DNA of 32,000 nucleotides from Alkanindiges illinoisensis DSM 15370 (GCF_000619845.1 NZ_KK211037.1:292979-324978), one strand, 5' to 3'; shown: positions 1 to 32,000, counted from the first letter of the stretch. Notes: generated from the letters alone by a model not told the origin. A program made the numbers and translations.

Positions 1-161
1 AAGGCCAAACAATTATTATGCATCCCTGTGATGGTAGTAATCGTAGCTGTATTTATGTAGCGTGGGGTAAAACAACCATTGCTAGTGATGACGTCTCCAG
101 TTGTATGAGTTCAGGGACTTATGTACCTGATGCCCAATGTATTGTTATGGAGGCATTTTAA
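1..161 (+). CDS. 3' end of an upstream ORF, probably minor pilin PilV (5' part outside window)
   Basis: Frame 3 is open from the window edge to TAA at 159-161 (...CDGSNRSCIYVAWGKTTIASDDVSSCMSSGTYVPDAQCIVMEAF*). The stop sits 1 nt before the pilW ATG (TAAAATG). It is called PilV only from its position directly upstream of pilW-pilX-pilY1, the fimU-pilVWXY1E order known from Pseudomonas/Acinetobacter. No N-terminal pilin motif is visible in the window. Confidence 0.4.
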   Translation, partial: GQTIIMHPCDGSNRSCIYVAWGKTTIASDDVSSCMSSGTYVPDAQCIVMEAF

Positions 162-162
162 A

Positions 163-1128
163 ATGAAACTGCCTTTACAGCATGGTTTTACATTAGTTGA
201 ACTAATGATTTCTATTGTTCTGGGACTGATGGTGACCGCAGCAGCAACTCAGTTATTTATTACAGGACAACGTAGTATGGCTTTACAGCAGGGTGCTGCC
301 AGTTTGCAAAACAGTGGTAGTTTTGGTCTGGAATACATTTTAAGAGATGTACGGCTAGCAAATCTAGGCGCGGCTACACCAGTTATTGACCCTGCAGTGC
401 TTCATGGCGGATTGGTTTTAAGTCATTCAAATTTAAGCAGTGTGCCAGTAGCAGATTTTACAATTAATGGATCAGAAAGTACTAATTCACTCATGACAGT
501 AGGGGAAGTAGGTCTATCTAACTTAAAAGATCAAAAAAGTGATCAATTAGTAATTCAATATAAAAACACAGTAGGTAATCAGTATGATTGTGAAGGACAC
601 ACTATTGCAGCGAATGCTTATGTAGTTCAGCGCTATTTTATAAGAAAAGATAGTAATACTAATAATGATCCTAATGAACCCTTAGCATTGGCTTGTAAAG
701 CCACTTCTTATACAGGTGATGCTAATACAGCTTTAACTGATTTAGGTGGAAATGGGGAAATTATTATTCCGCGTGTTGACCATATGCATATTTTACTAGG
801 TGTGGCACAAGATACATTAGATGAAAGTGTATTACCAAGTAAAGCCGGACAAGATGGTGTGTTGGATCGTTTTGGCTATATCAACATTAATGATTATCTT
901 GATCTTGCTAGTAAGCCACAAATCGTTTCCATTAAGCTTGGTTTATTGGTGCGTTCATCTGATACAGTAGGTAACCATGGTTTAACCAAAGCGGATAAAC
1001 AATATAAGATTTATGATATTGATCAGCCGCTAATAGACGATGCAAAAAATAATTTATATGTTAGAGAAGTGGTAACTCAAACAATTGCTTTGCGTAATGG
1101 ATTTGGACTGAAGGAGGAAGGAAAATGA
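163..1128 (+). CDS. pilW: Type IV pilus minor pilin PilW
   Basis: Lies in ORF 121..1128. I place the start at ATG 163 because GGAGG (149-153) is 9 nt upstream. This start gives the leader MKLPLQHG followed by FTLVELMISIVLGLMVTAAATQLF, the prepilin-peptidase motif G|FTLxE plus hydrophobic helix. Size (~320 aa) and position before pilX/pilY1 fit PilW. Confidence 0.85.
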   Translation: MKLPLQHGFTLVELMISIVLGLMVTAAATQLFITGQRSMALQQGAASLQNSGSFGLEYILRDVRLANLGAATPVIDPAVLHGGLVLSHSNLSSVPVADFTINGSESTNSLMTVGEVGLSNLKDQKSDQLVIQYKNTVGNQYDCEGHTIAANAYVVQRYFIRKDSNTNNDPNEPLALACKATSYTGDANTALTDLGGNGEIIIPRVDHMHILLGVAQDTLDESVLPSKAGQDGVLDRFGYININDYLDLASKPQIVSIKLGLLVRSSDTVGNHGLTKADKQYKIYDIDQPLIDDAKNNLYVREVVTQTIALRNGFGLKEEGK

Positions 1129-1877
1129 ATCAATCTATTCCTTCCAATGCCCAAAAAGGTGCAACTCTCATTGTAGTACTTGTTCTTTTGGTGGTTATTA
1201 CTATTGTAGGAACATGGGCTATACGTGGCAGTATGACATCATTAAATATTGCCACTAATGCCCAAGCACAAGCTTTATTACAGCAGGCTTCTGACGCGGT
1301 ATTTTTTAGCCTTGAAAATCAAACATCCAACGATTTGACCTTAACCCAGATGCAAATTGGTGATGGTATGCTGGCTTATGTTTTGCGTCCGGAAAATAAA
1401 GGCAAAGAGCTGGTGTTTTGTATTCGCGGTAATGAAGCAAATAGTTTAGAAGGTAGTCGTAACGCCAGTGTAGTGTATTGGGATGGCACAGCAATTAAAA
1501 ACACTGAGCAGGGCACCACTGGGTTTTGTAAATTAAGTCGCACAGCAGATTTTATTAGTAAACGTGCAGCAGTAGTGACTCGCGTGGCGATACGTCCTGC
1601 AAATGCAGGGAAAGATTGGGAGCATATGCTTGAGGGCGATGATCCATTAATGTCAAAAACAAATCAGATTCAAAAGGTAATTGTAAGCGTTACTTCACTG
1701 ATACCCAATTTAAGCAGTTCATCAACTGCAGATATTAATACATGTCTGACGAATTACACTAGTTTTGTTGATCCTGTTGCAGGCAATAAAACAGTAACAG
1801 ACTGTTTGGCAGAAGAGAATGTGCCATATAGTTCTCAGGAAATGGAATATACCTTGAAACCTGTAAGTGCATCATAA
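1125..1877 (+). CDS. pilX: Type IV pilus minor pilin PilX
   Basis: ATGA overlap with the pilW stop (1125-1128). The N-terminus QKGATLIVVLVLLVVITIVGTWAIRGS resembles the QRGxxLxVxL hydrophobic N-terminal segment of PilX proteins. Position between pilW and pilY1 also fits. Confidence 0.8.
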   Translation: MNQSIPSNAQKGATLIVVLVLLVVITIVGTWAIRGSMTSLNIATNAQAQALLQQASDAVFFSLENQTSNDLTLTQMQIGDGMLAYVLRPENKGKELVFCIRGNEANSLEGSRNASVVYWDGTAIKNTEQGTTGFCKLSRTADFISKRAAVVTRVAIRPANAGKDWEHMLEGDDPLMSKTNQIQKVIVSVTSLIPNLSSSSTADINTCLTNYTSFVDPVAGNKTVTDCLAEENVPYSSQEMEYTLKPVSAS

Positions 1878-1887
1878 AGGAGAGTCA

Positions 1888-4800
1888 ATGATGAAAAAAT
1901 TAAGACTGAATTTTAAAGATGCACTGGATTATAAGGAGCACATGATGCGTGCCAAGCAAAAATTTAAAGCAGCGAGTATTGGTTTTGCTGTAACAGCTAT
2001 AATTTGCGCAGGTATACCAACAACTTATGCCAGCGATATTGAAATTTATAAAGTACCCGAGGATGCTGTTGGCAATACGACGTTAATGATGATGCTAGAC
2101 TTGTCAGGAAGTATGGGCTGGGGAGAGGGCTATACAATATGGAATAATAATCAAAATAAGTATGTGCCATATACTTCTATGAGTGTTCAAGAGGATTATG
2201 GTGTTTGTTCAGGAACAAATACAGGAATACTACCAGATACCGCGACTACAAGTTATTACACACGATATTATTGTCCTGTAACAGCAGTGGTAGCAGCAAG
2301 CAATTCAAAAGTTACAGATACTAAAACTGGTTGTGAGAAGCAAACTGACAATTCTTATCGTTGTTATGATCGTTTAACTCGCTTAAAGGACGGTTTACGA
2401 CAGACATTATTAGGAACACAAACTGTCCCTAAAATTGATGATAAAATTATTGTAGGACTATCCACTTTTGCAGGAAATAATGGTTATGTTCGAGTGCCAG
2501 CCAGAGCCTTAGGTACAGTTTTAAACTCAACCACAATTCAAGAACCCTATACAGAAACTGAAACATATACAGAGCAAGAGCCCTACACAGAAACTGAAAC
2601 ATATACAGAGCAAGAACCATATGTAGTTCAAGAAGCATGTGTTGTAAATCAAGAGCAGACCTTTAATAAACCCCGTTGGAGAATGATACAAACAAGGAGT
2701 TTTTTTAGTTCATCTACAAAATATCAAACGTGTAATGGCGGATGGACTGCTGATTATGTATGTAAAGGATGGAGTGGCGAATCAACTTCTAAACCTACAG
2801 GTTTTCCTGGAACAACTCTCAGTAATGAATATGAGGGATGTGGATTCTTGTGGTCAACTTGTAAAACAGAATATTATGAAGTTATAAAAGAACCAAGACC
2901 TGTTAATACAACGTGTCCTGTTACAAAATATCGTGACGTAACGAGAACTCGGCAAGTAACCAAATATAGAGAGGTTACAAAAACTCGAATAGTAACAAAA
3001 TATCGGGATAAAGTTATTAATACGACTCAAAGAGATTTATTATTAACCACTTTAAAAGACCTCAATGCAAATGGGGGTACACCAACACCTTATGCTTATG
3101 CAGAAGCAGCAGCATATTTAATGGGAACGAATACTAATGTTAGTGATTATAATATTAGGTATTATCAAAGTTTAGGAAATAGACAGACGAATGGAACAAG
3201 CAATTATCCTTGCAAGTCTCCCTTAAACCCAACTAATAGCTATAGAACATATAAAAAACCGGATGGTTCGCCAATAATAATACGCTGGTGTGAAGACAGC
3301 AATAAAAGTTGGACACCACCAGCGGGCTCTACAAGCTTGGTTTATGATTTTACAAATAATGCCAATAGAGAACTATTTTATGCTGCTAATGATCCTAGAT
3401 CGTCTACAGCATCAGATGGCGCTACTTATTCAGGCTGGACAAGTTCACAACAAATTGATAATGGCACAAACTCAATTACTGGCTCAACAAATTATGTTGC
3501 ACCAACTTCTATTGCTGGTCAAAAGGATAATGCTGCACAACGTGAGTGTAGTGGACAGGGCATTTATTTCTTAACAGATGGTCAACCTGAGCCTAATGGC
3601 TGGGCTGTAGGTGATGATGGTACGAGTGGAACAGCTTATGCTCTTATGAGACAATCATTAGGAGACAAGAGTAGTCTATTTACTTGTAATAGTAGCCCCT
3701 TAGGTAGCCGTACAGGATATTCAAATCTGAATAATAGCTGGGCATGTATTGGGAAGTATGCGCAGGCATTACTTGCTCCAGCTAAAAATCCAGCAGGTGT
3801 AAAAGTTAAGACAGCCGTTGTGGGGTTTGGTAGTAGTTTTGGTGGAGGAACTACAGCCAGTGATGACGTAGAAGATGCAAAAACATGGGGTACAATTGGA
3901 GAAGGAGGGTGGATTGCTGGCTCAAAACCCGAAGATGTATCAAATAGCATTAATAAATTTGTTGGTGATCTAATTAAAGATATACCTAGTATGAGTACTG
4001 GTTCATCAACCATTCCTGTAGATGCCTTAAATCCTGCAGCAGTACAGCCGTATTCTTATTTTCCACAGTTTGAACCAAAAGTTAATCCTGCAGATAAACA
4101 GCAAATCTGGTTTGGTAACTTGAAAAAATACTATGTTCTAAATAGCAGTGTTTATGCAGGTGAAACAGCTAGTGACAACAATCTTGTCGTTAAAAAAAGT
4201 AAATTGCAGGATCTGGCAGATATCTGGGCGAAAGGAGGCATTGATTATCCAGCAAGTACGCCTATTTTTAAGAAAGGCGGTGCATTAAGTCGGTTACCAT
4301 TAGGCACAGGAACAAATGCAGAAGGCCAAACTACCACTGCTAGAAACCTGCTTACTGATTATAGTTATGACGGTACAAAGGCTGAAAGCGAGCGAGTAAC
4401 TCGTGATTTTGATTTGGTAAAAATAAATTATACCTATACTTCAAATGATAAGACCAAAACAGATACCACCTATGCCAGCGCATTAATGAGCTTGCTGGGT
4501 TACAATATTTCCAGTGATACCAATACTAATGGTTTGGATTTAAGCACGCAAACTGCAGAAGTGCGGCAAATGGGCAGTATCATGCACTCTAATCCTGTGC
4601 TACTAACGCAGGAAGGTAAGGCAACTGCAACAAAAGATAGCACGACAGGTAAGATCAGTGTAGGTAGTACAGGTCGTGAAGATTATGTGCTGTTTGGAAC
4701 AACCCAAGGTTTAGTACAAGTAGTTGATGCCACTACAGGGGTAGAGAAATTTGCCTTTGTGCCTAAAGAAATTATTGAGCGTCAATCAGAAACTTTTAAA

Positions 4801-6396
4801 AACGGTGGTGGTAACCTCGCTGGTGGTAAAGAAGCACTTTATTACGGCATTGATGGTGAATGGACTGCACATACTGTTTATGTGACCAAAGCTAATGGTA
4901 CATTAACAGTTAAAGGTACTGCTAGGGATGCTGATAGCGAAGAAAAGGAAAACCTAAGTGGTAAACAATGGGTTTATGGAGGCATGCGCATGGGTGGACG
5001 TAGTTATTATGCGCTTGACCTAACCGATATTAATAACCCTAAAATCAAATTTCATATTGATCCTTCAACCAGTAAGGTTTACAACAAGGATAATCCTTCA
5101 GGAACTACCTTTACTGCACTTGCTAAAATGGGTCAAAGCTGGTCTAAACCTACTCTGGGGTATGTCAACTGGAAAGGTAAGCGTAAACTAGTGATGTTTG
5201 TTGGTGGTGGTTATGATGCTGGTGGAGTTCATGGTGATGGGCTTTATGCTGAGGGCATTCGCACTGGTTACGCTGGTTATGAAACCTATAATTATAATCA
5301 AGATAATAAAATTGGCGCTGGCGTATACATGTTTGATGCTGATAGCGGAGACTTACTCTGGAATGCCGACTCAGATAGCAATAGCGAGTTAAAATATAGT
5401 GTAGCCAGTCAAATTCGGGCTATAGACCGAAATAATGATGGTATGATTGATCATGTGTATTTTGGTGATCTTGCTGGACAGGCGTTTCGTGTTGATTTTA
5501 AAAATGATGGAAGCAAAACGGCCTTTACAACACAGACTACTAGAATTTTAAACTTACATCAAACAGATGGTACCAGTCCACGTTTTTATACTTTACCTGT
5601 GTTTACAGCACATTATAGCGCTGGTAGTGAAAAAATTTATGGCGGAAATATTGTCTTGGTAACATTTGTTTCTGGTAACAAAAGCTCACCTTTACTAGCA
5701 ACTAGCGATTCACCTCAAAAGAAAGATCCAAGTGGCCTACAGTATGATGGAGCTTATGCGATATATGATTATGATGTATATCCAAGCACCAGTGAAGGAC
5801 GTTATCCAAGTAGTAATATGGCAGCCAGAACACTAGCTGCAACAACTGCTACTGATCCTTCAGCAACTCAATTGAGATATATTAATGATGCAACGACAAC
5901 CACTACTATTGATAAAACTAGTGGTTGGGGAGGTTGGTATTATCTCTTTAATAAAAAATTCGATGATAGTAATGGAAGCGCAAGTATTATTAAGGCGTTA
6001 ACCAATCCTATTGCATTAGAAGGCAGTTTGTATGTTACTCAGTTTGATGCTTCAAACAATGGTACTACTTCGAGCTGCGGTGCTGGCGTAAAAGGACATA
6101 GCTTTGCCCAACGCTTATGTTTGCCAACAGGTGTTTGTAAAGAAGATGCCAACTATAGATATAATTTAGGTTCTGGCATTGTGACCCTTAATGTAGGGGG
6201 CGGTACAGACAACGATGTTTATAAGCGAAGTTTAGTGGTTCCAGATCCTAATGATATTTGTACAGGGCCAAATTGTAAGCCTTGTAAGGGTAATGATTGT
6301 GTTACTGGTAAAAACTTTCTGAATACGGGTGGTGCATTGAAGCTTATTCCTAATCGATGGTACGAAAAATATGCAAGACAGGAGCCTAGCTCATGA
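1888..6396 (+). CDS. pilY1: PilY1/PilC/ComC-type pilus tip adhesin with N-terminal vWA domain (about 1480-1500 aa)
   Basis: vWA MIDAS motif DLSGS at 2098-2112, plus later vWA elements (IVGLSTF, GGTPTPYAYAEAAAY, IYFLTDGQPE, VVGFG). The C-terminal PilY1-type region carries a Ca-binding-type loop DRNNDGMID (5425-5451) followed by YFGDLAGQAFRVD. Signal peptide AASIGFAVTAIICAGIPTTYA|SD. The start is uncertain: ATG 1888 follows AAGGAG at 1877-1882, while ATG 1942/1945 follows a second AAGGAG at 1933-1938 and gives a normal-length signal peptide. The GTG at 1867 used by the ORF track overlaps the pilX stop and is less likely. Confidence 0.9.
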   Translation: MMKKLRLNFKDALDYKEHMMRAKQKFKAASIGFAVTAIICAGIPTTYASDIEIYKVPEDAVGNTTLMMMLDLSGSMGWGEGYTIWNNNQNKYVPYTSMSVQEDYGVCSGTNTGILPDTATTSYYTRYYCPVTAVVAASNSKVTDTKTGCEKQTDNSYRCYDRLTRLKDGLRQTLLGTQTVPKIDDKIIVGLSTFAGNNGYVRVPARALGTVLNSTTIQEPYTETETYTEQEPYTETETYTEQEPYVVQEACVVNQEQTFNKPRWRMIQTRSFFSSSTKYQTCNGGWTADYVCKGWSGESTSKPTGFPGTTLSNEYEGCGFLWSTCKTEYYEVIKEPRPVNTTCPVTKYRDVTRTRQVTKYREVTKTRIVTKYRDKVINTTQRDLLLTTLKDLNANGGTPTPYAYAEAAAYLMGTNTNVSDYNIRYYQSLGNRQTNGTSNYPCKSPLNPTNSYRTYKKPDGSPIIIRWCEDSNKSWTPPAGSTSLVYDFTNNANRELFYAANDPRSSTASDGATYSGWTSSQQIDNGTNSITGSTNYVAPTSIAGQKDNAAQRECSGQGIYFLTDGQPEPNGWAVGDDGTSGTAYALMRQSLGDKSSLFTCNSSPLGSRTGYSNLNNSWACIGKYAQALLAPAKNPAGVKVKTAVVGFGSSFGGGTTASDDVEDAKTWGTIGEGGWIAGSKPEDVSNSINKFVGDLIKDIPSMSTGSSTIPVDALNPAAVQPYSYFPQFEPKVNPADKQQIWFGNLKKYYVLNSSVYAGETASDNNLVVKKSKLQDLADIWAKGGIDYPASTPIFKKGGALSRLPLGTGTNAEGQTTTARNLLTDYSYDGTKAESERVTRDFDLVKINYTYTSNDKTKTDTTYASALMSLLGYNISSDTNTNGLDLSTQTAEVRQMGSIMHSNPVLLTQEGKATATKDSTTGKISVGSTGREDYVLFGTTQGLVQVVDATTGVEKFAFVPKEIIERQSETFKNGGGNLAGGKEALYYGIDGEWTAHTVYVTKANGTLTVKGTARDADSEEKENLSGKQWVYGGMRMGGRSYYALDLTDINNPKIKFHIDPSTSKVYNKDNPSGTTFTALAKMGQSWSKPTLGYVNWKGKRKLVMFVGGGYDAGGVHGDGLYAEGIRTGYAGYETYNYNQDNKIGAGVYMFDADSGDLLWNADSDSNSELKYSVASQIRAIDRNNDGMIDHVYFGDLAGQAFRVDFKNDGSKTAFTTQTTRILNLHQTDGTSPRFYTLPVFTAHYSAGSEKIYGGNIVLVTFVSGNKSSPLLATSDSPQKKDPSGLQYDGAYAIYDYDVYPSTSEGRYPSSNMAARTLAATTATDPSATQLRYINDATTTTTIDKTSGWGGWYYLFNKKFDDSNGSASIIKALTNPIALEGSLYVTQFDASNNGTTSSCGAGVKGHSFAQRLCLPTGVCKEDANYRYNLGSGIVTLNVGGGTDNDVYKRSLVVPDPNDICTGPNCKPCKGNDCVTGKNFLNTGGALKLIPNRWYEKYARQEPSS
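2542..2622 (+). repeat. In-frame 36-bp tandem repeat (2 full units + 9 bp) inside pilY1, encoding EPYTETETYTEQ
   Basis: Unit 1 (2542-2577) is gaaccctatacagaaactgaaacatatacagagcaa. Unit 2 (2578-2613) is gagccctacacagaaactgaaacatatacagagcaa, with 2 synonymous differences. A partial third unit gaaccatat occupies 2614-2622. Confidence 0.9.
2920..3015 (+). repeat. Degenerate 36-bp (12-aa) basic repeat inside pilY1: VTKYRDVTRTRQ / VTKYREVTKTRI / VTKYRDKV
   Basis: Read directly from the translation and the DNA. The units are conserved at protein level but use different codons (e.g. cgt/aga/cgg for the Arg after Tyr), so this is an old, protein-selected repeat rather than a recent duplication. Confidence 0.8.
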
Positions 6397-6926
6397 ATCG
6401 AATGAATAAAGGTTTTACGCTCATTGAGTTAATGATAGTTGTGATGATTGTTGCCATTTTGGCAGCAATCGCCATACCAACCTATGCAGAATATGGAAGA
6501 AGAGCCGCCAAGTCAGCTGCTCAACAAGAAATGCTTAAACTGGCTGAACAGCTGGAAAGACATAAAGGAAAAAATTTTAGCTATAAAGGTTTTGATCCAT
6601 CATATTTATACTCTTATATAGATGATAATGGCAGCCCGGCAAACTATTATGATGAATCCCATGGCACTTTAGAATTGCCGTTAGGGAGTACTACCAATAA
6701 GAAATACACCCTGACTTTAGTGGATTTGTTTAAAAAAAAGCCATTATCTTCATCAACTGACAATATTTTAGGGCAAAGCTGGGCAATTAAAGCTATACCT
6801 GAAGATTTAAAAAATGATGCCATGCTATTAACAAGCACCGGCATTAATTGTGAAATTAAAGCAACAGAGTCGTTAACCAAATTAAATGACTATGAAAGTT
6901 GCAAGGATGATAGTGATGATGAATAG
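6393..6926 (+). CDS. Type IV pilin-like protein (PilE/ComE-like minor pilin), copy 1
   Basis: ATGA overlap with the pilY1 stop. Leader MNRMNKG|[24 protein letters not shown] is a canonical prepilin motif. A C-terminal Cys pair ([19 protein letters not shown]) is typical of a pilin disulfide loop. Confidence 0.8.
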
Positions 6927-7365
6927 CCAGAGTGAACGAGGCTTTACGCTTATAGAGCTTATGATTGTGGTTGCGATTATTGGTATTCTGGCTGCTATTG
7001 CTTACCCATCTTATACCCAATATAAAATAAGAACTCAACGGACTGATGCGCAAAGCGAAATGCTTTATATTGCTCAGCGTATGCAAAGTTATCGTGCTGC
7101 AAACGGTAACTTTGCAGGTGCAACTGTATCTACAGTATATGGTGGTGGAGATACCACCCCTAAACAAGGGACAGCGTTATATAATTTGGCGTTTAGTCCA
7201 TCCCCAGCCACCGCCAATAGTTGGACATTGATTGCGACGCCTATAACAGGAACCCAGCAAGCAGGTGATGGAGTCATTTGTCTTAATAATCAGGGTCAAA
7301 AATTTTGGACTACAGCCGCCACAGCTTGTAGTTTATCTGCCACTTCAGACTGGTCAGGTCGCTAA
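6916..7365 (+). CDS. pilE: Type IV pilin-like protein PilE/ComF-like, copy 2
   Basis: Lies in ORF 6886..7365. The likely start is ATG 6916 or 6919 (AAGGA at 6903-6907), giving MMNSQSERG|[37 protein letters not shown], which closely resembles PilE N-termini. C-terminal Cys pair ([19 protein letters not shown]). It overlaps the previous gene by about 11 nt. Confidence 0.75.
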
Positions 7366-9940: not shown

Positions 9941-10999
9941 TTATTGCAATAGCTCGTTAATATTGGTGCCTTGATCCCTAAAATGCTCATAGGTCACGGC
10001 GCGCTGGCGCTCGGCGTCATCACTGAACTGGCGTTCACGCAGGGCAGTAATGGCTCGCTGTTTGTCTTCTGGGGCCTGGTTGCTGGCTAAAATAGTCTGG
10101 CGCTGATTTAAATAATCCTGTACCCGGCTTTGCCAGTTGGCACGTGATTGATCAAGCTGTTCCAGCCGTTCTGCTGCTTCATGCCCAACGAGTTGTTCAC
10201 GCATTTGCTGCAATTCAGCCTTGCTGCCATTTTTTTGCCTGATTTGCTGGGTTAATGCCCGTAAGTCTTGCAGCTTGCTCATGTCTTCCAGATTCTTTTG
10301 CAGCGTTGGTGGCAATTGTGCAAAACGCTGTTTGAGCTGCTGGGCTTTTTGTGCTGCGTTCAGTGATTTATTATCCAGAATGCTTAGACGGTCAATAGTG
10401 TACTGGTTGTAAGTCATCTCATCGCCAAACAGGGCATTGAGTTCTGCTGGATTAAAATATTTTTGACGCAGTTGAGTGAGTTGATCCAGTACCCGCTGTA
10501 AATGATCAGGGTCTGTATTGGCACCGCTGTTTTGCAGTTTACCTTCGGCCTCACGGTATTTAAGGTAGCGCTGCCACAGGTCAGTGGCTTGTGCTGCGGC
10601 GTTGGTCGGCAGATTGTGCTGAATGTACTGTTTGACCTGCTGATCAATGCTGCCAAGCGATTTTTCACCAATCTGGGTGAGGAAATATTCAAAGCAGCGG
10701 CGAATTTTGACATTCAGTACCAACTGGCCTGCCGGGGTTGCTTCTAGCGCACAGTCAATTTCCGTATCCTGTAATGAAGCAGATAAGCCTTCTGCGGGTT
10801 CAGTCGGATTACTGCTGGTATCATTCGCTGTCGGATCAGACACGGTTTTGTCCTCAAGCATGCTATTGGACAAATTTGTGGCAGAGTTAGCTGAAGTCAC
10901 AGTGGATGAATTGTCCGGTTTTAGCCACAGGATCAGGCAGATAACCGCAATTGCCAGCACAACCACCAGCAAAGAAGCAAGAAAGTATTTTTTTTTCAT
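9941..10999 (-). CDS. lifO: Lipase-specific foldase (Lif / lipase chaperone), membrane anchored
   Basis: N-terminal TM anchor (YFLASLLVVVLAIAVICLILWL). The helical body carries Lif-type segments (RRCFEYFLTQIGEKSL...DLWQRYLKYREA...LRQKYFNPAELNALFGDE...YTIDRLSIL). It lies immediately downstream of a family I lipase gene. Confidence 0.85.
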   Translation of the reverse strand: MKKKYFLASLLVVVLAIAVICLILWLKPDNSSTVTSANSATNLSNSMLEDKTVSDPTANDTSSNPTEPAEGLSASLQDTEIDCALEATPAGQLVLNVKIRRCFEYFLTQIGEKSLGSIDQQVKQYIQHNLPTNAAAQATDLWQRYLKYREAEGKLQNSGANTDPDHLQRVLDQLTQLRQKYFNPAELNALFGDEMTYNQYTIDRLSILDNKSLNAAQKAQQLKQRFAQLPPTLQKNLEDMSKLQDLRALTQQIRQKNGSKAELQQMREQLVGHEAAERLEQLDQSRANWQSRVQDYLNQRQTILASNQAPEDKQRAITALRERQFSDDAERQRAVTYEHFRDQGTNINELLQ

Positions 11000-11114
11000 T
11001 TGCAGATTTTAATAAACAGGAAATTTAATCAGTAAACCTGATGCAGGTTTGCAAATCCAGTAAGGCCAGACGAACAGACCATGAGCCAACCGGATAGGTA
11101 ATAAATGAAACACG

Positions 11115-11154
11115 CCATGACATGCTGAAACAACAAAATGAAAGCATGTCATGG
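11115..11154 (-). promoter_or_regulatory. Intercistronic stem-loop between lipase and foldase genes
   Basis: Perfect 12-bp inverted repeat ccatgacatgct (11115-11126) / agcatgtcatgg (11143-11154) with a 16-nt loop. On the - strand it is followed by CGTGTTTCATTTATTA, which is only moderately U-rich. Confidence 0.5.
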
Positions 11155-11166
11155 GTGGAGGGCAGG

Positions 11167-12129
11167 TTATAGGCCTGCCAGTTTTAGACGGTTGGCGTGC
11201 TGGCGATACAGTTCAACCGGATCAGGACTGAACAGGCCACGTAAACCGAGAATCTGGTTTACTTCATCCAGATGATTGTGTGCATAGTCATCACGGATGA
11301 CCTTGCCAAAGTGCGCACTACAGGTGCCAACCAGGCCATCGTTATCCGTAAAGCCAAAAGCCAGTCCTGCAAGGCCAACCACGATGGTATCCGGGTCCAG
11401 CACATTGGTCACGGTCTTGTTACCTGTCCACGAATAGTTATAAATGCCATTGGTGACTGCTGTGCCCTGACCACATTCGGTGGTGGGAATGCCATTTGGG
11501 AAGCGCTTGTTAAAGGCCAGTGAACCTTCAGTGCTCAGGCTTTTTAGGGACGCATTCATGTTGCTGGGCAGGTTTGGCTTTCCTTGTGCCCAGTTCATGA
11601 CTGGCACCAGTGTGGCTTCAACAAAGGCCGAAACCACTTGTGCGCCAACGCCTGTTGATAGCAGTAAATCAGCAACCTTGGAGCCTTTATTCACCCCGGC
11701 AACGGTGGTCACTGAAGCAATCTTGGACGGCATAACCCCTGCTGCATAACGGGTGGTTGGGCCGCCGTGACTATGGCCAATCAGGTTGACTTTTTTGGCA
11801 CCGGTAATCGCCAGTACTTCTTCAACCTGCTTGACCAGTTGTTCGCCACGGACTTCAGTGCTGTTGAGGGGAGAAACCTGCGTGGCATAGACTGTCGCAC
11901 CGTTACTGGCCAGATCAGGCAGTACCTGATAAAAATAATCCAGTCCAAACTCAGGCACGCCCAGACGGGTAAAGCCAAACATACCGTGGTTAAATACAAT
12001 GGGATATTTGGTTTTGGCGTAGGTGGCCTTGGAGTTGGTAGGCGTGGTCTGTAAGGCGGCAAAGGCAGAGCTGCTACCCAGCAGTGTTAGGCCGACCAGA
12101 CCGGTGATTAGTTTACTTTTCAGCATCAT
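11167..12129 (-). CDS. lipA: Secreted triacylglycerol lipase, bacterial family I (Lif-dependent type)
   Basis: Signal peptide MMLKSKLITGLVGLTLLGSSSAFA. Oxyanion region YPIVFNHGMFGF. Nucleophile elbow GHSHGG. Cys pair (ECGQG...VGTCSAHFG). Asp/His region DGLVG...HNHLDEVNQ. GAGGAA RBS upstream of the ATG. Confidence 0.9.
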   Translation of the reverse strand: MMLKSKLITGLVGLTLLGSSSAFAALQTTPTNSKATYAKTKYPIVFNHGMFGFTRLGVPEFGLDYFYQVLPDLASNGATVYATQVSPLNSTEVRGEQLVKQVEEVLAITGAKKVNLIGHSHGGPTTRYAAGVMPSKIASVTTVAGVNKGSKVADLLLSTGVGAQVVSAFVEATLVPVMNWAQGKPNLPSNMNASLKSLSTEGSLAFNKRFPNGIPTTECGQGTAVTNGIYNYSWTGNKTVTNVLDPDTIVVGLAGLAFGFTDNDGLVGTCSAHFGKVIRDDYAHNHLDEVNQILGLRGLFSPDPVELYRQHANRLKLAGL

Positions 12130-28498: not shown

Positions 28499-28645
28499 GG
28501 AACACTCTTTATAAAATCAAACAGGTGGAGTAAGGATTATAGTGGAAATTGCACCGCTTGTACCTGCCCATGCAATAGGTTCTAAGCACACGTAAAATCG
28601 GTATAATTTATTCTAATGAATATACGAAAATATTATCCTAAAACG

Positions 28646-28681
28646 AAAAAACTGGCTGCTGAAAACAAATTCAGCAGCCAG
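28646..28681 (-). terminator. Strong rho-independent terminator after the OMP gene
   Basis: The - strand reads CTGGCTGCTGAA-tttgtt-TTCAGCAGCCAG followed by TTTTTT. It has a perfect 12-bp stem and starts 33 nt after the OMP stop codon. Confidence 0.85.
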
Positions 28682-28713
28682 CCTTAATATCAAATTATTG
28701 CAATAGTAAGCAA

Positions 28714-29829
28714 TTAAAAATTGGCAAAACGTACCCCAAAAGAAGCATAGCCATATTTACGGTCTAAGCGTGATGCAGTGACTGAGTTATACAGGAAGGG
28801 AATAGTGCCAACAAAGTTATTTTTAAATAGCTGACTGGCCACAAACAGACTGGTGTAATTGTTGAGCTTATAGGACAAGTCCAGCCCTAGTGTATGGTTG
28901 CTCTTAATGGCCGAATTACCATAAGTGCTTACCCGGTCATCAATATCCTGGCGCATCAGGTACTGAAACTGATAGCCCAGCAAGCTATTGAACTTTTTAT
29001 AGCTCCAGTTCCATGAGCCACCGATACTGAAAAAACCAGCGTCGTAGCTGAGGTCTTTGTCCATATCCAGCCCATAGTTGGAAGCTTGATCGGTAAAGCT
29101 GGCTTCTTCAAGGGTTGTACCATTATTGGTACAAGGTGCTATTAGTTGGCCATTGAGCTGGTTATTTGAGTTCACCTGAATATTAAAATTGCAGTTACCG
29201 CCAATATTAAGATTAGCATTCAAGCTATCAACGTCAACTTTGCTGTACCCAAGGCTGACAAACCCATTGAGCTTATTCTGGCGATCCAGACGACGGGCAA
29301 ACAGTAAATCCACTTGTGCCTGAATGTCATTTAGGTCATTGACTTTAAGTTTACTAAAACGCTGGTTATTAACAATTGTAGTAGATGTCTTGCTGAGTTC
29401 ATCAGCTTGGTTGCCCCATAAAGCCAAACGAATGGCAACTTCATCACCAGGTTTAAGTGTGAGTAAAGGCGTATATTGAACTGCAGCCAGCCAGCTATCA
29501 ATCTCATTACTGTCCTGCCCATACTCAATATTACGGTTCCAGTAAGCCACTTCTCCCACCCACTGTGGATTAAAGGCGTAGCTCAGCATGAGATGACCGC
29601 CATCATAATCACCTGCATTATCACCCACAGCGCCTTCACTTTCCCGGATATTAAAAATATCCACGGTGTCGTTTACAATATCAAAACTGGCTTCTACAGT
29701 TAGTGGCGATGCGACATTGGCAGGTAAGGGTTGTAAAAACACATCATTGGGCGCTGCATAGCTAAACCCTGAAATGCTGTAAGCGCAGCCTAACGCTAAA
29801 CTGGATAAGTAATGACGTTTGAGAAACAT
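28714..29829 (-). CDS. Outer-membrane beta-barrel protein, family not recognised (371 aa)
   Basis: Lies in ORF 28714..29895, which opens with TTG. I place the start at ATG 29829 (AAGGA 7 nt upstream). Signal peptide MFLKRHYLSSLALGCAYSISGFSYA|AP. Amphipathic alternating beta-strand pattern throughout. The C-terminus YGYASFGVRFANF has a terminal Phe, the OMP/BAM signature. Confidence 0.75.
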   Translation of the reverse strand: MFLKRHYLSSLALGCAYSISGFSYAAPNDVFLQPLPANVASPLTVEASFDIVNDTVDIFNIRESEGAVGDNAGDYDGGHLMLSYAFNPQWVGEVAYWNRNIEYGQDSNEIDSWLAAVQYTPLLTLKPGDEVAIRLALWGNQADELSKTSTTIVNNQRFSKLKVNDLNDIQAQVDLLFARRLDRQNKLNGFVSLGYSKVDVDSLNANLNIGGNCNFNIQVNSNNQLNGQLIAPCTNNGTTLEEASFTDQASNYGLDMDKDLSYDAGFFSIGGSWNWSYKKFNSLLGYQFQYLMRQDIDDRVSTYGNSAIKSNHTLGLDLSYKLNNYTSLFVASQLFKNNFVGTIPFLYNSVTASRLDRKYGYASFGVRFANF

Positions 29830-29894
29830 AAAAAATCCTTCATCAGTAAGAAGGTAAAGACAAAATTTTTGAGAAAATATGAACCCGTAAACCA

Positions 29895-29920
29895 ATAGAG
29901 TTACCCGAAGGTAACTCTAT
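29895..29920 (-). promoter_or_regulatory. Perfect 11-bp hairpin with cUUCGg tetraloop between the lipoprotein and OMP genes
   Basis: The - strand reads AUAGAGUUACC-UUCG-GGUAACUCUAU. It starts 34 nt after the lipoprotein stop and ends 65 nt before the OMP ATG. No U-tract follows it (UGGUUUACGGG). Confidence 0.6.
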
Positions 29921-29953
29921 AAGTTGTTAATACAAAGGAATTACCCTTAAGTA

Positions 29954-31708
29954 TTACTGCTGGATTTTCAGTACTGCACTAACGCCCTGACCTGCCAGTG
30001 TGTTGCTGGTGCTGGTGTTAATACCAATGCTGGTAGCGGCTTTGGCTGCATCACCAGTACCAGTACCTACGCGAACAGTAGTGCTGCTGGTTGCACCCAG
30101 AGCTACCTTGATGCTGACATTATTACCCGCTTTTGGACGGTAGCTTTCAACCTGACTGGTTGGAATGCCACTTGTACCTGCCAGTTTATTCAAGAAGGTA
30201 TCAATTGGTAGAGTAACTGCACCATTGGTTACAGTCAGGTTATCGGCCTGCAGATTATTTTTAGAATTACCGACCAGCGCTGGCGAACCAGTACCACGGA
30301 ACGCATAAGTGGCACCTACAGGAACAGACGCAGCAGTCAGCGTACCATTACTGTCAAAGCTCATGTTTACGCGATCAATGATCAGGTCAAGTGTATTGCC
30401 ACCGCTAATCGCATAGCTTAAGCCAACGCGAGCTTCTGAGAAGTTACCTTCAAATGGTGAGCCTACTTTGTTGAGTTTAACCTGTACGCTGTCCAATGGA
30501 CCAGTAGTACTAAGTTCATTTCCTGATACTACAGAACCTTCAATGGCAGCAATATTGTACGGTGTACCACCATTTAGGCCCAGACTAACTAGTTGCAGAT
30601 AGTTCTTGTACAGGTCAACCTGCTGTAGGTCATCAGCAATACTGTCAGGAATTTTGCTACCTGCTGGCAGTGATTCATTAACATCAGCTAAAGCATCTTT
30701 AATCTGGTTCAGATTACCAGCCGCAACAGCTGCGCCCAAAGCCTGCAGGTCAGCAGCACTTACAGTAGTGGACATAAGTGCAGCAGATAAAGCATTAATC
30801 AGATTGGCAGTAGCAGGAGATGTAGCGGTGGCTTTTACAGTTTCCAGCTTTTCACCCAGCGCATTTAAGGTCGCTTGAGGATTTGCACCAATCGTAATGT
30901 TGCTTAATGCAGTATTAACAGCAGCTACTTTTTCCTGAATTACGGCAGCGGTAAGCGCGGCGGTATTGGCAGCAATTTTCTCAATATTTGCCTGCATGCT
31001 TGCTGGTAAATCATTTTTAGCTTCTAGTACAGCACCTTGAACTGCAGCCTGAATGAAATCAATATTGGTCAGGTCCACTGTACCAGTTTGTGCTTCAAGA
31101 CGGGCAGCCAGCGCAGCAGAAGCTGCACGTGCTGCTTGCTCTGGGGTTAGGCTACCACCACCGCTAGTACTGAGCTGGATTAGGGCTTTTTGAATCTGAT
31201 CAACAAACTGTTGTACCACAACTGTTTGTTTTAATGCAGCAGCATCAGTCATTGGATCAAGTGTTAACAGGTTTTTCCCACTTAGGCCTAGTTTGGCTGC
31301 AACCGCTGCACTATCACCTGCACCACCAGCATAGGTGATTAAAGTTGTGAGAGGAGAAGCAATATTCAAATTGCCTGCGGTTGTTTTTGGCGCTTTTAGC
31401 GTACCGGAAAATGGCAAATCAGTACCAATATCTATACCACCAGTAACCGTCAGGGCTGTATCGCGGCAGTCATTTGGATAGTTAAAGCCACCGGTAGCAT
31501 CAGTAGTAGTGGTTTGATCATTACAATCTTCAAAAGTAACTGTAGCGCCAGCCAGATAAAAGTCAATGGCTTTACCTTTGGCTTGAGCTGCGGGAGGATT
31601 AGGATTTGATGGCGGTAAATCATCATGGTCACTACCACAGCCAGCAACGAGTGAAGCGGCAATTGCGATAGTTAATGAGGTAAAGGTAGTCTTGAGCTTC
31701 ATATTCAT
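29954..31708 (-). CDS. Large Ala-rich lipoprotein of unknown function (584 aa)
   Basis: Signal peptide plus lipobox MNMKLKTTFTSLTIAIAASLVAG|CGSD, then a Pro-rich tether (PPSNPNPPAAQ). An N-terminal beta module has two Cys (AIDFYLAGATVTFEDCNDQTTTTDATGGFNYPNDC...GGIDIGTDLPFSGTLKAP). This is followed by ~250 aa of Ala/Leu/Gln-rich predicted helix and a ~200-aa Gly/Ser/Thr/Val-rich beta-type C-terminal domain. Confidence 0.8.
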   Translation of the reverse strand: MNMKLKTTFTSLTIAIAASLVAGCGSDHDDLPPSNPNPPAAQAKGKAIDFYLAGATVTFEDCNDQTTTTDATGGFNYPNDCRDTALTVTGGIDIGTDLPFSGTLKAPKTTAGNLNIASPLTTLITYAGGAGDSAAVAAKLGLSGKNLLTLDPMTDAAALKQTVVVQQFVDQIQKALIQLSTSGGGSLTPEQAARAASAALAARLEAQTGTVDLTNIDFIQAAVQGAVLEAKNDLPASMQANIEKIAANTAALTAAVIQEKVAAVNTALSNITIGANPQATLNALGEKLETVKATATSPATANLINALSAALMSTTVSAADLQALGAAVAAGNLNQIKDALADVNESLPAGSKIPDSIADDLQQVDLYKNYLQLVSLGLNGGTPYNIAAIEGSVVSGNELSTTGPLDSVQVKLNKVGSPFEGNFSEARVGLSYAISGGNTLDLIIDRVNMSFDSNGTLTAASVPVGATYAFRGTGSPALVGNSKNNLQADNLTVTNGAVTLPIDTFLNKLAGTSGIPTSQVESYRPKAGNNVSIKVALGATSSTTVRVGTGTGDAAKAATSIGINTSTSNTLAGQGVSAVLKIQQ

Positions 31709-31928
31709 TGGTACTTCTTCCCTTGGCTGGATAAATGTCTGGTCAATAGTAGTGCTTAATATGTTATTGAAACCTAAATGGTAAGCACCTGTTCTTGTCA
31801 GAATAAATGTTTTTCTTATATCAAAAAACAGCTACACGGGCAATGAAAAAAGGATAGACCTCCTTTATTGGTTCAATATTTCTTGTAAATATTATTAAAT
31901 AAACTTAAAACTGCTTCACATTAGTTGA

Positions 31929-32000
31929 TCAAAATACAACCATTTTCTCGCTAATGTTGCCTTTTTGAATTAATTCCAGAAATTCATCTCCCAAGCGTTG
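31929..32000 (-). CDS. Possible 3' end of an unidentified gene entering from the right edge
   Basis: Only one - strand frame is open from the window edge: ...QRLGDEFLELIQKGNISEKMVVF*, with TGA at 31931-31929. It is too short to identify or to be sure it is coding. Confidence 0.25.
   Translation of the reverse strand, partial: QRLGDEFLELIQKGNISEKMVVF

Follow-up and report, generated by a model that had tools for sequence, protein, structure and literature searches.

A Tek-like lipoprotein gene and its constant beta-barrel neighbour in Alkanindiges illinoisensis: a candidate cargo and outer-membrane export partner

Near one end of a 32,000-nucleotide stretch of Alkanindiges illinoisensis DSM 15370 (NZ_KK211037.1:292979-324978), referred to here as the window, lies a two-gene operon in which a large lipoprotein is encoded ahead of an outer-membrane beta-barrel protein. 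The operon and its signals are on the minus strand. Gene 1 (29954..31708), identified from the open reading frame (ORF) call and an AlphaFold2 model, encodes a Tek-like lipoprotein of 584 amino acids. Gene 2 (28714..29829) encodes a barrel of 371 amino acids when counted from an ATG that has the Shine-Dalgarno sequence GAAGGA ahead of it; the mechanical ORF reaches further, to a TTG at 29895, which is inside a hairpin in the 124-nt gap between the genes. An intrinsic terminator (28640..28685) closes the operon, with a stem of 16 pairs (28685 to 28648), 7 of them G-C, a loop of 6 and a T-run. The non-coding DNA 5' of gene 1 extends for 220 nt and has a GC content of 0.315. A preliminary description of this DNA had reported two same-strand genes (31708 to 29954 and 29829 to 28714), a perfect hairpin between them, a terminator after the pair and an AT-rich non-coding leader of about 220 bp. 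The ORF listing and the raw sequence bear out all of these, and the hairpin is found at 29920 to 29895.

The product of gene 1 starts with a signal peptide and lipobox (residues 1-24) that ends in LVAG-C24, with the Cys24 codon at 31639-31637, and its mature mass is 56.5 kDa. A Pro-rich tether, GSDHDDLPPSNPNPP, occupies residues 25-43. In the AlphaFold2 model (pLDDT 86) residues 1-43 are disordered, residues 44-118 (31579-31355) form a beta-sandwich, residues 119-362 (31354-30623) are entirely helical and residues 370-584 make up a beta domain. The sandwich contains two cysteines, C62 and C81, that are invariant across the family, and residues 119-365 are 22% Ala. The C-terminal beta domain, taken as residues 366-584 (30613-29957), is basic, with a mass of 22 kDa and an isoelectric point (pI) of 8.9, and the remainder of the protein has a pI of about 4.3. 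The lipobox, Pro-rich tether, two-Cys beta module, Ala-rich helix and C-terminal beta domain that had been read from the sequence are therefore all present. Within the lipoprotein family conservation is highest in residues 41-200, which cover the two-Cys sandwich and the first helices, and lowest in residues 341-360, the linker ahead of the beta domain. Every member of the family has C-G at positions +1/+2, followed by a G/S linker.

When the gene 1 product was compared by BLASTP with the Ralstonia solanacearum "TEK signal peptide protein" (tek, CP047137.1), the two were found to share 37% identity over residues 42-582 (E = 9e-78). A second protein with the same name in that record (tek2) matched with E = 1e-76. 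These alignments identify gene 1, at the level of sequence, as a full-length homologue and distant member of the Tek family, which is named but functionally unexplained. Precursors in this family have a mass of about 58 kDa and carry a signal for export at the N-terminus, to which the 584 residues and lipobox of gene 1 correspond; the Ralstonia Tek proteins also carry a lipobox (LVACGGGG). According to the account in PMC5601409, which cites Denny et al. 1996, Tek is the most abundant protein made by R. solanacearum in culture and is co-regulated with exopolysaccharide (EPS), and its precursor is exported and cleaved so that a 28-kDa C-terminal fragment is released. Tek is also described as EPS I-associated and PhcA-regulated (PMC9266643). 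The lipoprotein thus belongs to a family that is reported to be exported from the cell.

The preliminary description had assigned neither protein to a named family. For the lipoprotein the homology to Tek revises that statement, which otherwise stands in the sense that neither protein matches a curated family. At the Pfam and NCBIfam thresholds there was no match for the gene 1 product, for 40 lipoprotein relatives or for the Ralstonia homologues, and none for the gene 2 product or any of 49 barrel relatives. The N-terminal domain of the lipoprotein gave only weak, sub-threshold matches, to bMG3/CarboxypepD_reg. A Foldseek search with the gene 1 model returned no match at E<=0.001 to any solved structure, the best probability being 0.2; matches to BoNT, Cry and GFP-like structures, at probabilities <=0.2, were left uninterpreted. 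Profile searches of Protein Data Bank (PDB) sequences with the barrel, the lipoprotein and its N-terminal domain yielded nothing real. The "Pizza" propeller matches among them were sums of weak repeats, each stretch of which had E>100 when taken alone.

Gene 2 encodes a signal peptide of about 25 residues (residues 1-25), a conserved mature N-terminus (AAPNDVFLQ) and a C-terminal Phe (...RFANF). The AlphaFold2 model (pLDDT 84, pTM 0.80) is a beta-barrel in which DSSP assigns 13 long strands and a broken stretch at 214-248; judging from topological parity, the number of strands in the modelled barrel is probably about 14. Its first strand begins at residue 43, some 17 residues past the signal peptide, and there is no helical or periplasmic domain. 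The earlier reading of gene 2 as a signal-peptide-bearing barrel ending in RFANF, with no TPR-like N-terminal domain, agrees with both sequence and model. An exhaustive search with hidden Markov models collected 348 clusters at 50% identity, with full-length entries mostly of 340-400 amino acids, and by this measure the barrels constitute a discrete, uncurated family. Their sub-threshold matches are weak and are to generic barrel models, the C-terminal barrel of PelB and generic porins. One member carries the NCBI name [quoted passage not shown].

Two segments of the barrel are especially well conserved. Strand 6 (residues 168-174, window ~29328-29306) carries an invariant D-x-Q-x-Q-x-D ladder, with the alternate residues on one face, and the last long loop (residues 341-360, window ~28809-28750), IPFLYNxVTASRLDR, is the best-conserved segment of the protein. 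The two together suggest a specific lumenal or loop-in site. When the remote barrel relatives were scanned, no known domain was found except in a single fusion. This is a 757-aa metagenomic protein (P0284, L078 774-3047), encoded on a 3.2-kb contig, that joins N-terminal cadherin and He_PIG Ig domains to a final ~100 residues aligning with the C-terminal portion of the barrel profile (E = 8e-22), an autotransporter-like arrangement.

The two genes consistently occur together. In a scan of one genome per species the barrel was found at 70 loci, in Alkanindiges, Acinetobacter, Aquirhabdus, Cupriavidus, Ralstonia and other Burkholderiaceae, the nearest barrels being those of A. illinoisensis (90% identity) and A. 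hydrocarboniclasticus (88%). A lipoprotein homologue, detected by tblastn, adjoins the barrel gene on the same strand at 70/70 loci; it is upstream in 69 of these and downstream in the remaining one (L043). In both Moraxellaceae and Burkholderiales the adjacency is obligate. The pairing proposed in the preliminary description is therefore real, and the co-conservation in other genomes that it put forward as a check holds throughout. The barrel has no porin or enzyme family match, and in none of the 70 loci does it lack an adjoining Tek-like lipoprotein gene. Plasmid records lead to a similar picture: of 72,556 records, 134 contain the barrel and 134 the lipoprotein, each set comprising 132 from Ralstonia and 2 from Cupriavidus, where the correspondence is one of number and genus breakdown and not record by record. 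Ahead of remote barrels, too (29-32% identity, or E = 2e-27), there is a lipobox protein that has the N-terminal motif of the family, G-K/Q-A-V/I-D-G/F-Y.

The number of lipoprotein genes per barrel varies. The plasmid records hold 268 lipoprotein places and 151 barrel places, and the order in Ralstonia is tek-barrel-tek2. In annotated Ralstonia megaplasmids, the barrel homologue is called "hypothetical protein" and has a "TEK signal peptide protein" gene on each side. In four Acinetobacter loci (L026, L044, L045 and L047) a further lipoprotein gene follows the barrel, giving the order lipoprotein-barrel-lipoprotein, and L043 has barrel-lipoprotein only. Around a single barrel, then, cargo genes vary in number and order. 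The two copies in the Acinetobacter loci of this kind are ~30-45% identical to the query.

In R. solanacearum GMI1000, deletion of phcA lowers tek (RSp1002) 200-fold and xpsR (RSp1003) 100-fold. The decrease is 23.5-fold for tek2 (RSp1000) and 21.6-fold for RSp1001, the hypothetical gene that separates tek from tek2 (PMC5615195 supplement). RSp1001 was identified as the barrel gene from the identical gene order in L076, and with this identification the Ralstonia barrel gene is co-regulated with tek in a PhcA-dependent manner. The tek/RSp1002 locus, with its paralogue tek2 (RSp1000) and RSp1001, resembles the window pair in full-length homology, size, domain order, the order of lipoprotein then barrel, and the basic C-terminal domain. 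It differs in that the window lipoprotein is only 37% identical to Tek and the window is without EPS genes, an xpsR-like regulator or a second paralogue. Further, the processing of Tek into a fragment is known, in the account cited above, from Ralstonia only and not from Moraxellaceae. The regulator gene beside tek in Ralstonia (L076 12042-12965), which has no Pfam or NCBIfam model, is presumably xpsR, judging from its position and the RSp1003 tag. Homologues of it lie directly upstream of the Tek-like gene at ~24 Cupriavidus/Ralstonia loci, often with extra copies on both sides.

The gap between the two genes contains a conserved element. The intercistronic hairpin (29895..29920) has an 11-bp stem, ATAGAGTTACC paired with GGTAACTCTAT, that is closed by a TTCG loop, and the 124-nt gap as a whole folds with a free energy of -29.8 kcal/mol (z = -3.7 against shuffles). 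Across five Alkanindiges-like loci 98% of the cells in the stem are paired and 6/11 pairs are changed on both sides; none of 500 shuffles, and no slid register, comes close to this. In L001 the stem has 10 pairs, the outermost having been lost, and the compensatory changes stem from L002-L004. Nearly all Moraxellaceae loci have a hairpin that is unrelated in sequence in the same gap, and in many Acinetobacter loci this is a textbook A-tract/stem/T-tract terminator. The hairpin is therefore a candidate attenuator or mRNA-stabilising element. Its conservation through compensatory changes and its terminator-like form in Acinetobacter suggest that partial termination or differential mRNA stability would result in far more lipoprotein than barrel. 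Such unequal output would fit a cargo and its device better than a 1:1 complex, and it would agree with the tenfold difference in the PhcA effect in Ralstonia. A small stem of 5 bp, CCTTC...GAAGG (29837..29854), was detected over the barrel Shine-Dalgarno sequence in a terminator-like scan and in the minimum-free-energy fold, and one may speculate that it adds translational damping of the barrel to the effect of the upstream hairpin. Nothing in the region scored above the gathering score in Rfam.

In its genetic logic the pair, a barrel of ~14 strands encoded beside a tethered lipobox protein that ends in a beta domain, recalls Slam (DUF560, type XI secretion) and its substrates TbpB, LbpB, fHbp and HpuA, and Moraxellaceae are rich in Slams. 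The likeness extends to a cargo that evolves faster than its barrel and to the use of one barrel for more than one paralogous cargo. The preliminary description had raised the possibility that the pair is a minimal or new variant of such a system, with a minimal or divergent Slam as the barrel and a Slam-dependent surface lipoprotein as its partner. However, neither the gene 2 product nor any of the 49 barrel family members examined matches PF04575 at E<=1, there is no TPR or periplasmic domain, and no Slam or Slam-substrate structure is among the Foldseek matches of either protein. The lipoprotein that adjoins the barrel does have a beta domain at its C-terminus, and in Foldseek its fold has no significant match to a solved structure, the best probability being 0.2. 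Moreover, the element that is recognized in Slam substrates is the C-terminal barrel domain, whereas the conserved part of the lipoprotein here is N-terminal. Finally, in Ralstonia, where the one studied homologue comes from, the cited account has Tek cleaved and set free from the cell. Kinship with Slam is accordingly very improbable, and this part of the earlier proposal is abandoned.

Type V secretion, comprising the autotransporters and two-partner systems, offers a second comparison. The barrels of EstA, AaaA and EspP are among the best Foldseek matches of gene 2, and in type V systems, as with Tek, the exported part is cleaved off. The differences are that here the cargo is a polypeptide of its own, not joined to the barrel, and is predicted to be lipidated, there is no POTRA domain, and the matches have template modelling (TM) scores of only 0.40-0.45; for EstA the query-normalized score (TMq) is 0.45 with a root-mean-square deviation of 8.9. 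No member of the barrel family matches Autotransporter PF03797; one remote barrel matched it with E = 0.0013 and 18.9 bits against a cut-off of 26. A FadL/TodX channel, a 14-strand barrel with an N-terminal hatch domain, was also considered and rejected, with no Toluene_X match in Pfam, Foldseek TM scores of 0.33-0.39 and an N-terminal extension of only ~17 residues. By analogy, the genetic logic of the pair seems closest to that of a Slam/substrate pair or a split autotransporter.

In four lineages the pair lies in or beside polysaccharide gene clusters. In Burkholderia it has GDP-mannose dehydratase/epimerase genes on one side and genes for Bac_transf, GT4, GT2 and Acyl_transf_3 on the other, in Cupriavidus it adjoins PS_pyruv_trans, GT4 and Bac_transf genes, in Aquirhabdus it falls between DegT and Polysacc_synt_2 genes, and in Ralstonia it adjoins the eps cluster and xpsR. 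In Acinetobacter lwoffii PGM/PMM follows the pair, and a remote family member adjoins ManC and GT4 genes. This setting is what would be expected if the two proteins formed a stable outer-membrane complex, the helical lipoprotein serving as a scaffold for or lid on the barrel in the export, anchoring or modification of EPS, rather than a cargo and its exporter. The weak matches of family members to the PelB C-terminal barrel and to generic porin models point in the same direction, as does the resemblance to AlgK/AlgE and PelC/PelB, in which a lipoprotein with a large helical region is encoded beside a barrel, often in EPS clusters; composite OPX/barrel translocons offer a further analogy. Against such a complex, there is no match at threshold to Poly_export, TPR or a known EPS-porin family, and the barrel is smaller than the EPS porins, which have 16-18 strands. 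The conserved terminator or hairpin between the genes argues against a 1:1 stoichiometry. The Alkanindiges loci and most of those in Acinetobacter have a housekeeping context without EPS genes. In Ralstonia, as far as the cited account goes, the lipoprotein is released to the medium and its loss leaves EPS normal, although tek2 could mask a phenotype. We regard an EPS-handling complex of this kind as unlikely, though deserving of some weight.

A different neighbourhood is found in Glaciimonas sp. PCH181 (L075 11141-21095), where 46 nt separate the pair from a complete gspG-H-I-J-K-L-M-N-D-E-F operon that lies downstream of it in the same orientation. Type II secretion systems (T2SSs) export some lipoproteins, including PulA, SslE and the Acinetobacter protein InvL. 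The lipoprotein might then leave the cell by this route, and the barrel would be a surface receptor, an anchor or an outer-membrane protease that cleaves the precursor. The reported proteolytic processing of Tek and the presence of omptins among the Foldseek matches of the barrel are in keeping with this. However, the gsp adjacency occurs in only one of ~80 contexts examined, and the residue at +2 of the lipoprotein is Gly and not the Asp that occupies this position in the T2SS lipoproteins PulA and SslE, with the proviso that this is an E. coli rule that may not transfer. An omptin-like protease was rejected: the omptin matches have TM scores of 0.25-0.30, there is no omptin match in Pfam, and the 49-sequence barrel alignment contains no invariant His, whereas the omptin active site is Asp/Asp/Asp/His. 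Export by a T2SS, with the barrel in one of these accessory roles, therefore seems to us about as improbable as the EPS-handling complex.

The leader of the operon was examined in an alignment of five taxa whose lipoproteins are merely 38-56% identical. A block at 31871..31912 that includes the inverted repeat AATATTT-N5-AAATATT (31893 to 31875) is near-invariant in the 5 taxa and is a candidate operator or UP element. It is followed by a small conserved hairpin, AAAGGAG-GTCT-ATCCTTTTTT, and a T-run (31846..31866), which may either terminate transcription of the upstream gene or belong to the regulatory region. Next comes a promoter-like sequence, TTGCCC-N17-TATAAG (31815..31843), in which TATAAG is invariant and the spacing is kept in 5/5 taxa; it is this conservation that points to a promoter, and the site is missing from the consensus promoter scan. 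DNA identity in the core of the leader is 83-89%, compared with 64-66% for the lipoprotein coding sequence (CDS). The AT-rich leader is neither junk nor foreign DNA; it is better conserved than the coding sequence behind it.

Composition and synteny bear on the origin of the locus. The preliminary description had taken the cassette to be compositionally foreign, and genes 1 and 2 do have a mildly lower GC content (0.43 and 0.46, with 0.33-0.44 at third codon positions, GC3) than their housekeeping neighbours (0.48-0.53). However, the pilus genes of the window are lower still (GC 0.36-0.43, GC3 0.23-0.32), which shows that low GC in this window marks surface genes and not foreign DNA. The synteny ubiE-ubiJ-ubiB, patatin-like gene, pair, hisIE-tatABC is also kept in Alkanindiges, Acinetobacter and Moraxellaceae metagenome-assembled genomes (MAGs), and the pair is at the same position in A. 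illinoisensis, A. hydrocarboniclasticus and two of these MAGs. What is unusual is a mosaic block of high divergence centred on the lipoprotein gene. With DNA identity to A. illinoisensis (L001) measured in 100-nt windows, hisIE is 91-99% identical, the 3' two-thirds of the barrel gene 94-99% and the promoter region 83-89%, while identity is 47-75%, apart from a single window of 89%, from ~31800 to ~29500. This block (~29500..31800) takes in the 5' untranslated region, all of the lipoprotein gene and the hairpin, and extends into the barrel gene to about codon 110. Over whole genes the DNA identities are 66% for the lipoprotein CDS, 91% for the barrel and 95% for hisIE. Barrel codons 1-110 contain 31 synonymous and 34 non-synonymous differences, the latter mostly in the signal peptide, and codons 111-371 contain 24 and 3.

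The sharp edges of this block and the lower GC content would be expected if the cassette were a recently acquired island in which the two genes are adjacent by accident. This explanation is largely refuted by the conserved synteny, and the conserved promoter region and the adjacency at 70/70 loci also contradict it; we consider it scarcely tenable. Because the divergent block stops inside the barrel gene, the pattern is best read, from the sequence comparison, as allelic replacement at a resident locus and not as the insertion of an island. A hypervariable gene between conserved flanks suggests an exposed surface protein or a secreted one.

The reading that we favour is that the lipoprotein is a cargo and the barrel its dedicated outer-membrane partner for export or release, often in connection with EPS; the mechanism is one that we infer, and we give this reading a probability of about 0.5. 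The lipoprotein would be exported by Sec, lipidated and delivered to the outer membrane by Lol, since Gly at +2 constitutes no Lol-avoidance signal under the E. coli rule. There the barrel would act as a dedicated partner, taking the polypeptide to the cell surface and permitting release of the basic C-terminal domain, the presumed counterpart of the 28-kDa Tek fragment of Ralstonia. The released fragment might associate with acidic exopolysaccharide, and attenuation of read-through by the intercistronic hairpin would keep the cargo in large excess over the barrel. A stronger version, in which the barrel is the first of a Slam-independent family of dedicated lipoprotein translocators or release factors and the Tek/barrel module is a secretion route in itself, is more doubtful, and we put it forward tentatively. 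In the literature that was searched, no paper was found that describes the barrel partner or names an export route for Tek.

Several observations weigh against the assignment of cargo and export partner. The signature of an exporter with varied cargo, a conserved secretion domain joined to different cargo domains, is absent from the lipoprotein family: a profile search with the N-terminal domain for other types of cargo returned 24 mostly short proteins with no new architecture, and the Acinetobacter and Glaciimonas variants that were inspected belong to one diverged family. The Foldseek matches of the barrel are to generic barrels only (EstA, AaaA, EspP, OmpG, FadL/TodX and FapF), at TM<=0.45. 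The Glaciimonas adjacency raises the possibility that export is by a T2SS and not by the barrel. No polysaccharide or EPS genes were found in the 32-kb window, where the neighbours are hisIE, tatABC and the patatin-like gene; an association with EPS genes, by linkage or by shared regulation, is a feature of the Tek family that is absent from this window and present in the Ralstonia, Burkholderia, Cupriavidus and Aquirhabdus relatives. Lastly, loss of tek is reported to leave both virulence and EPS levels unaltered (PMC5601409, citing Denny et al. 1996).

Three other features of the window deserve mention. Upstream of the operon is the 3' end of a patatin-like phospholipase gene (31929..32000, minus strand, stop codon at 31931-31929), which is cut by the edge of the window. 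Its C-terminus, ...QRLGDEFLELIQKGNISEKMVVF, places it in the same ORF cluster as the flanking gene of the relatives, and a member of this cluster matches Pfam Patatin with E = 6.8e-6 and 26.9 bits, slightly below the cut-off of 27.7. In 27 Moraxellaceae loci a patatin-like gene is next to the pair, on its upstream side in Alkanindiges and on its downstream side in Acinetobacter, which could be chance synteny or could reflect a functional link. On the plus strand, a type IV pilus minor-pilin cluster (121-7365) includes pilW, pilX, a gene for a 1509-aa PilY1-like protein and two ComP/PilE-like pilin genes. On the minus strand, a lipase chaperone (Lipase_chap, E = 5.5e-51) is encoded beside an alpha/beta-hydrolase lipase (9941-12129) as a classic Lif/LipA pair, the LipA-type lipase of such pairs being a type II secretion substrate in related bacteria.

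Relative to the literature found, in which Tek itself has been known since 1996, what is new is the obligate barrel partner, the conserved candidate attenuator and the mosaic evolution of the locus. As an obligate, co-regulated neighbour of Tek in two bacterial orders, the barrel is a specific candidate for the missing outer-membrane step. If this is true, it would account for the way in which R. solanacearum releases its most abundant extracellular protein, and the barrels may represent a new family of lipoprotein-export devices, analogous to Slam and without detectable relation to it. The Tek/barrel module is widespread in Moraxellaceae and Burkholderiales and is often found in EPS clusters. 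A hypervariable cargo and this repeated linkage to EPS both point to a protein of the cell surface or the matrix that is subject to diversifying pressure, and the module may therefore bear on the biology of the biofilm matrix in Ralstonia, Burkholderia, Cupriavidus and environmental Acinetobacter.

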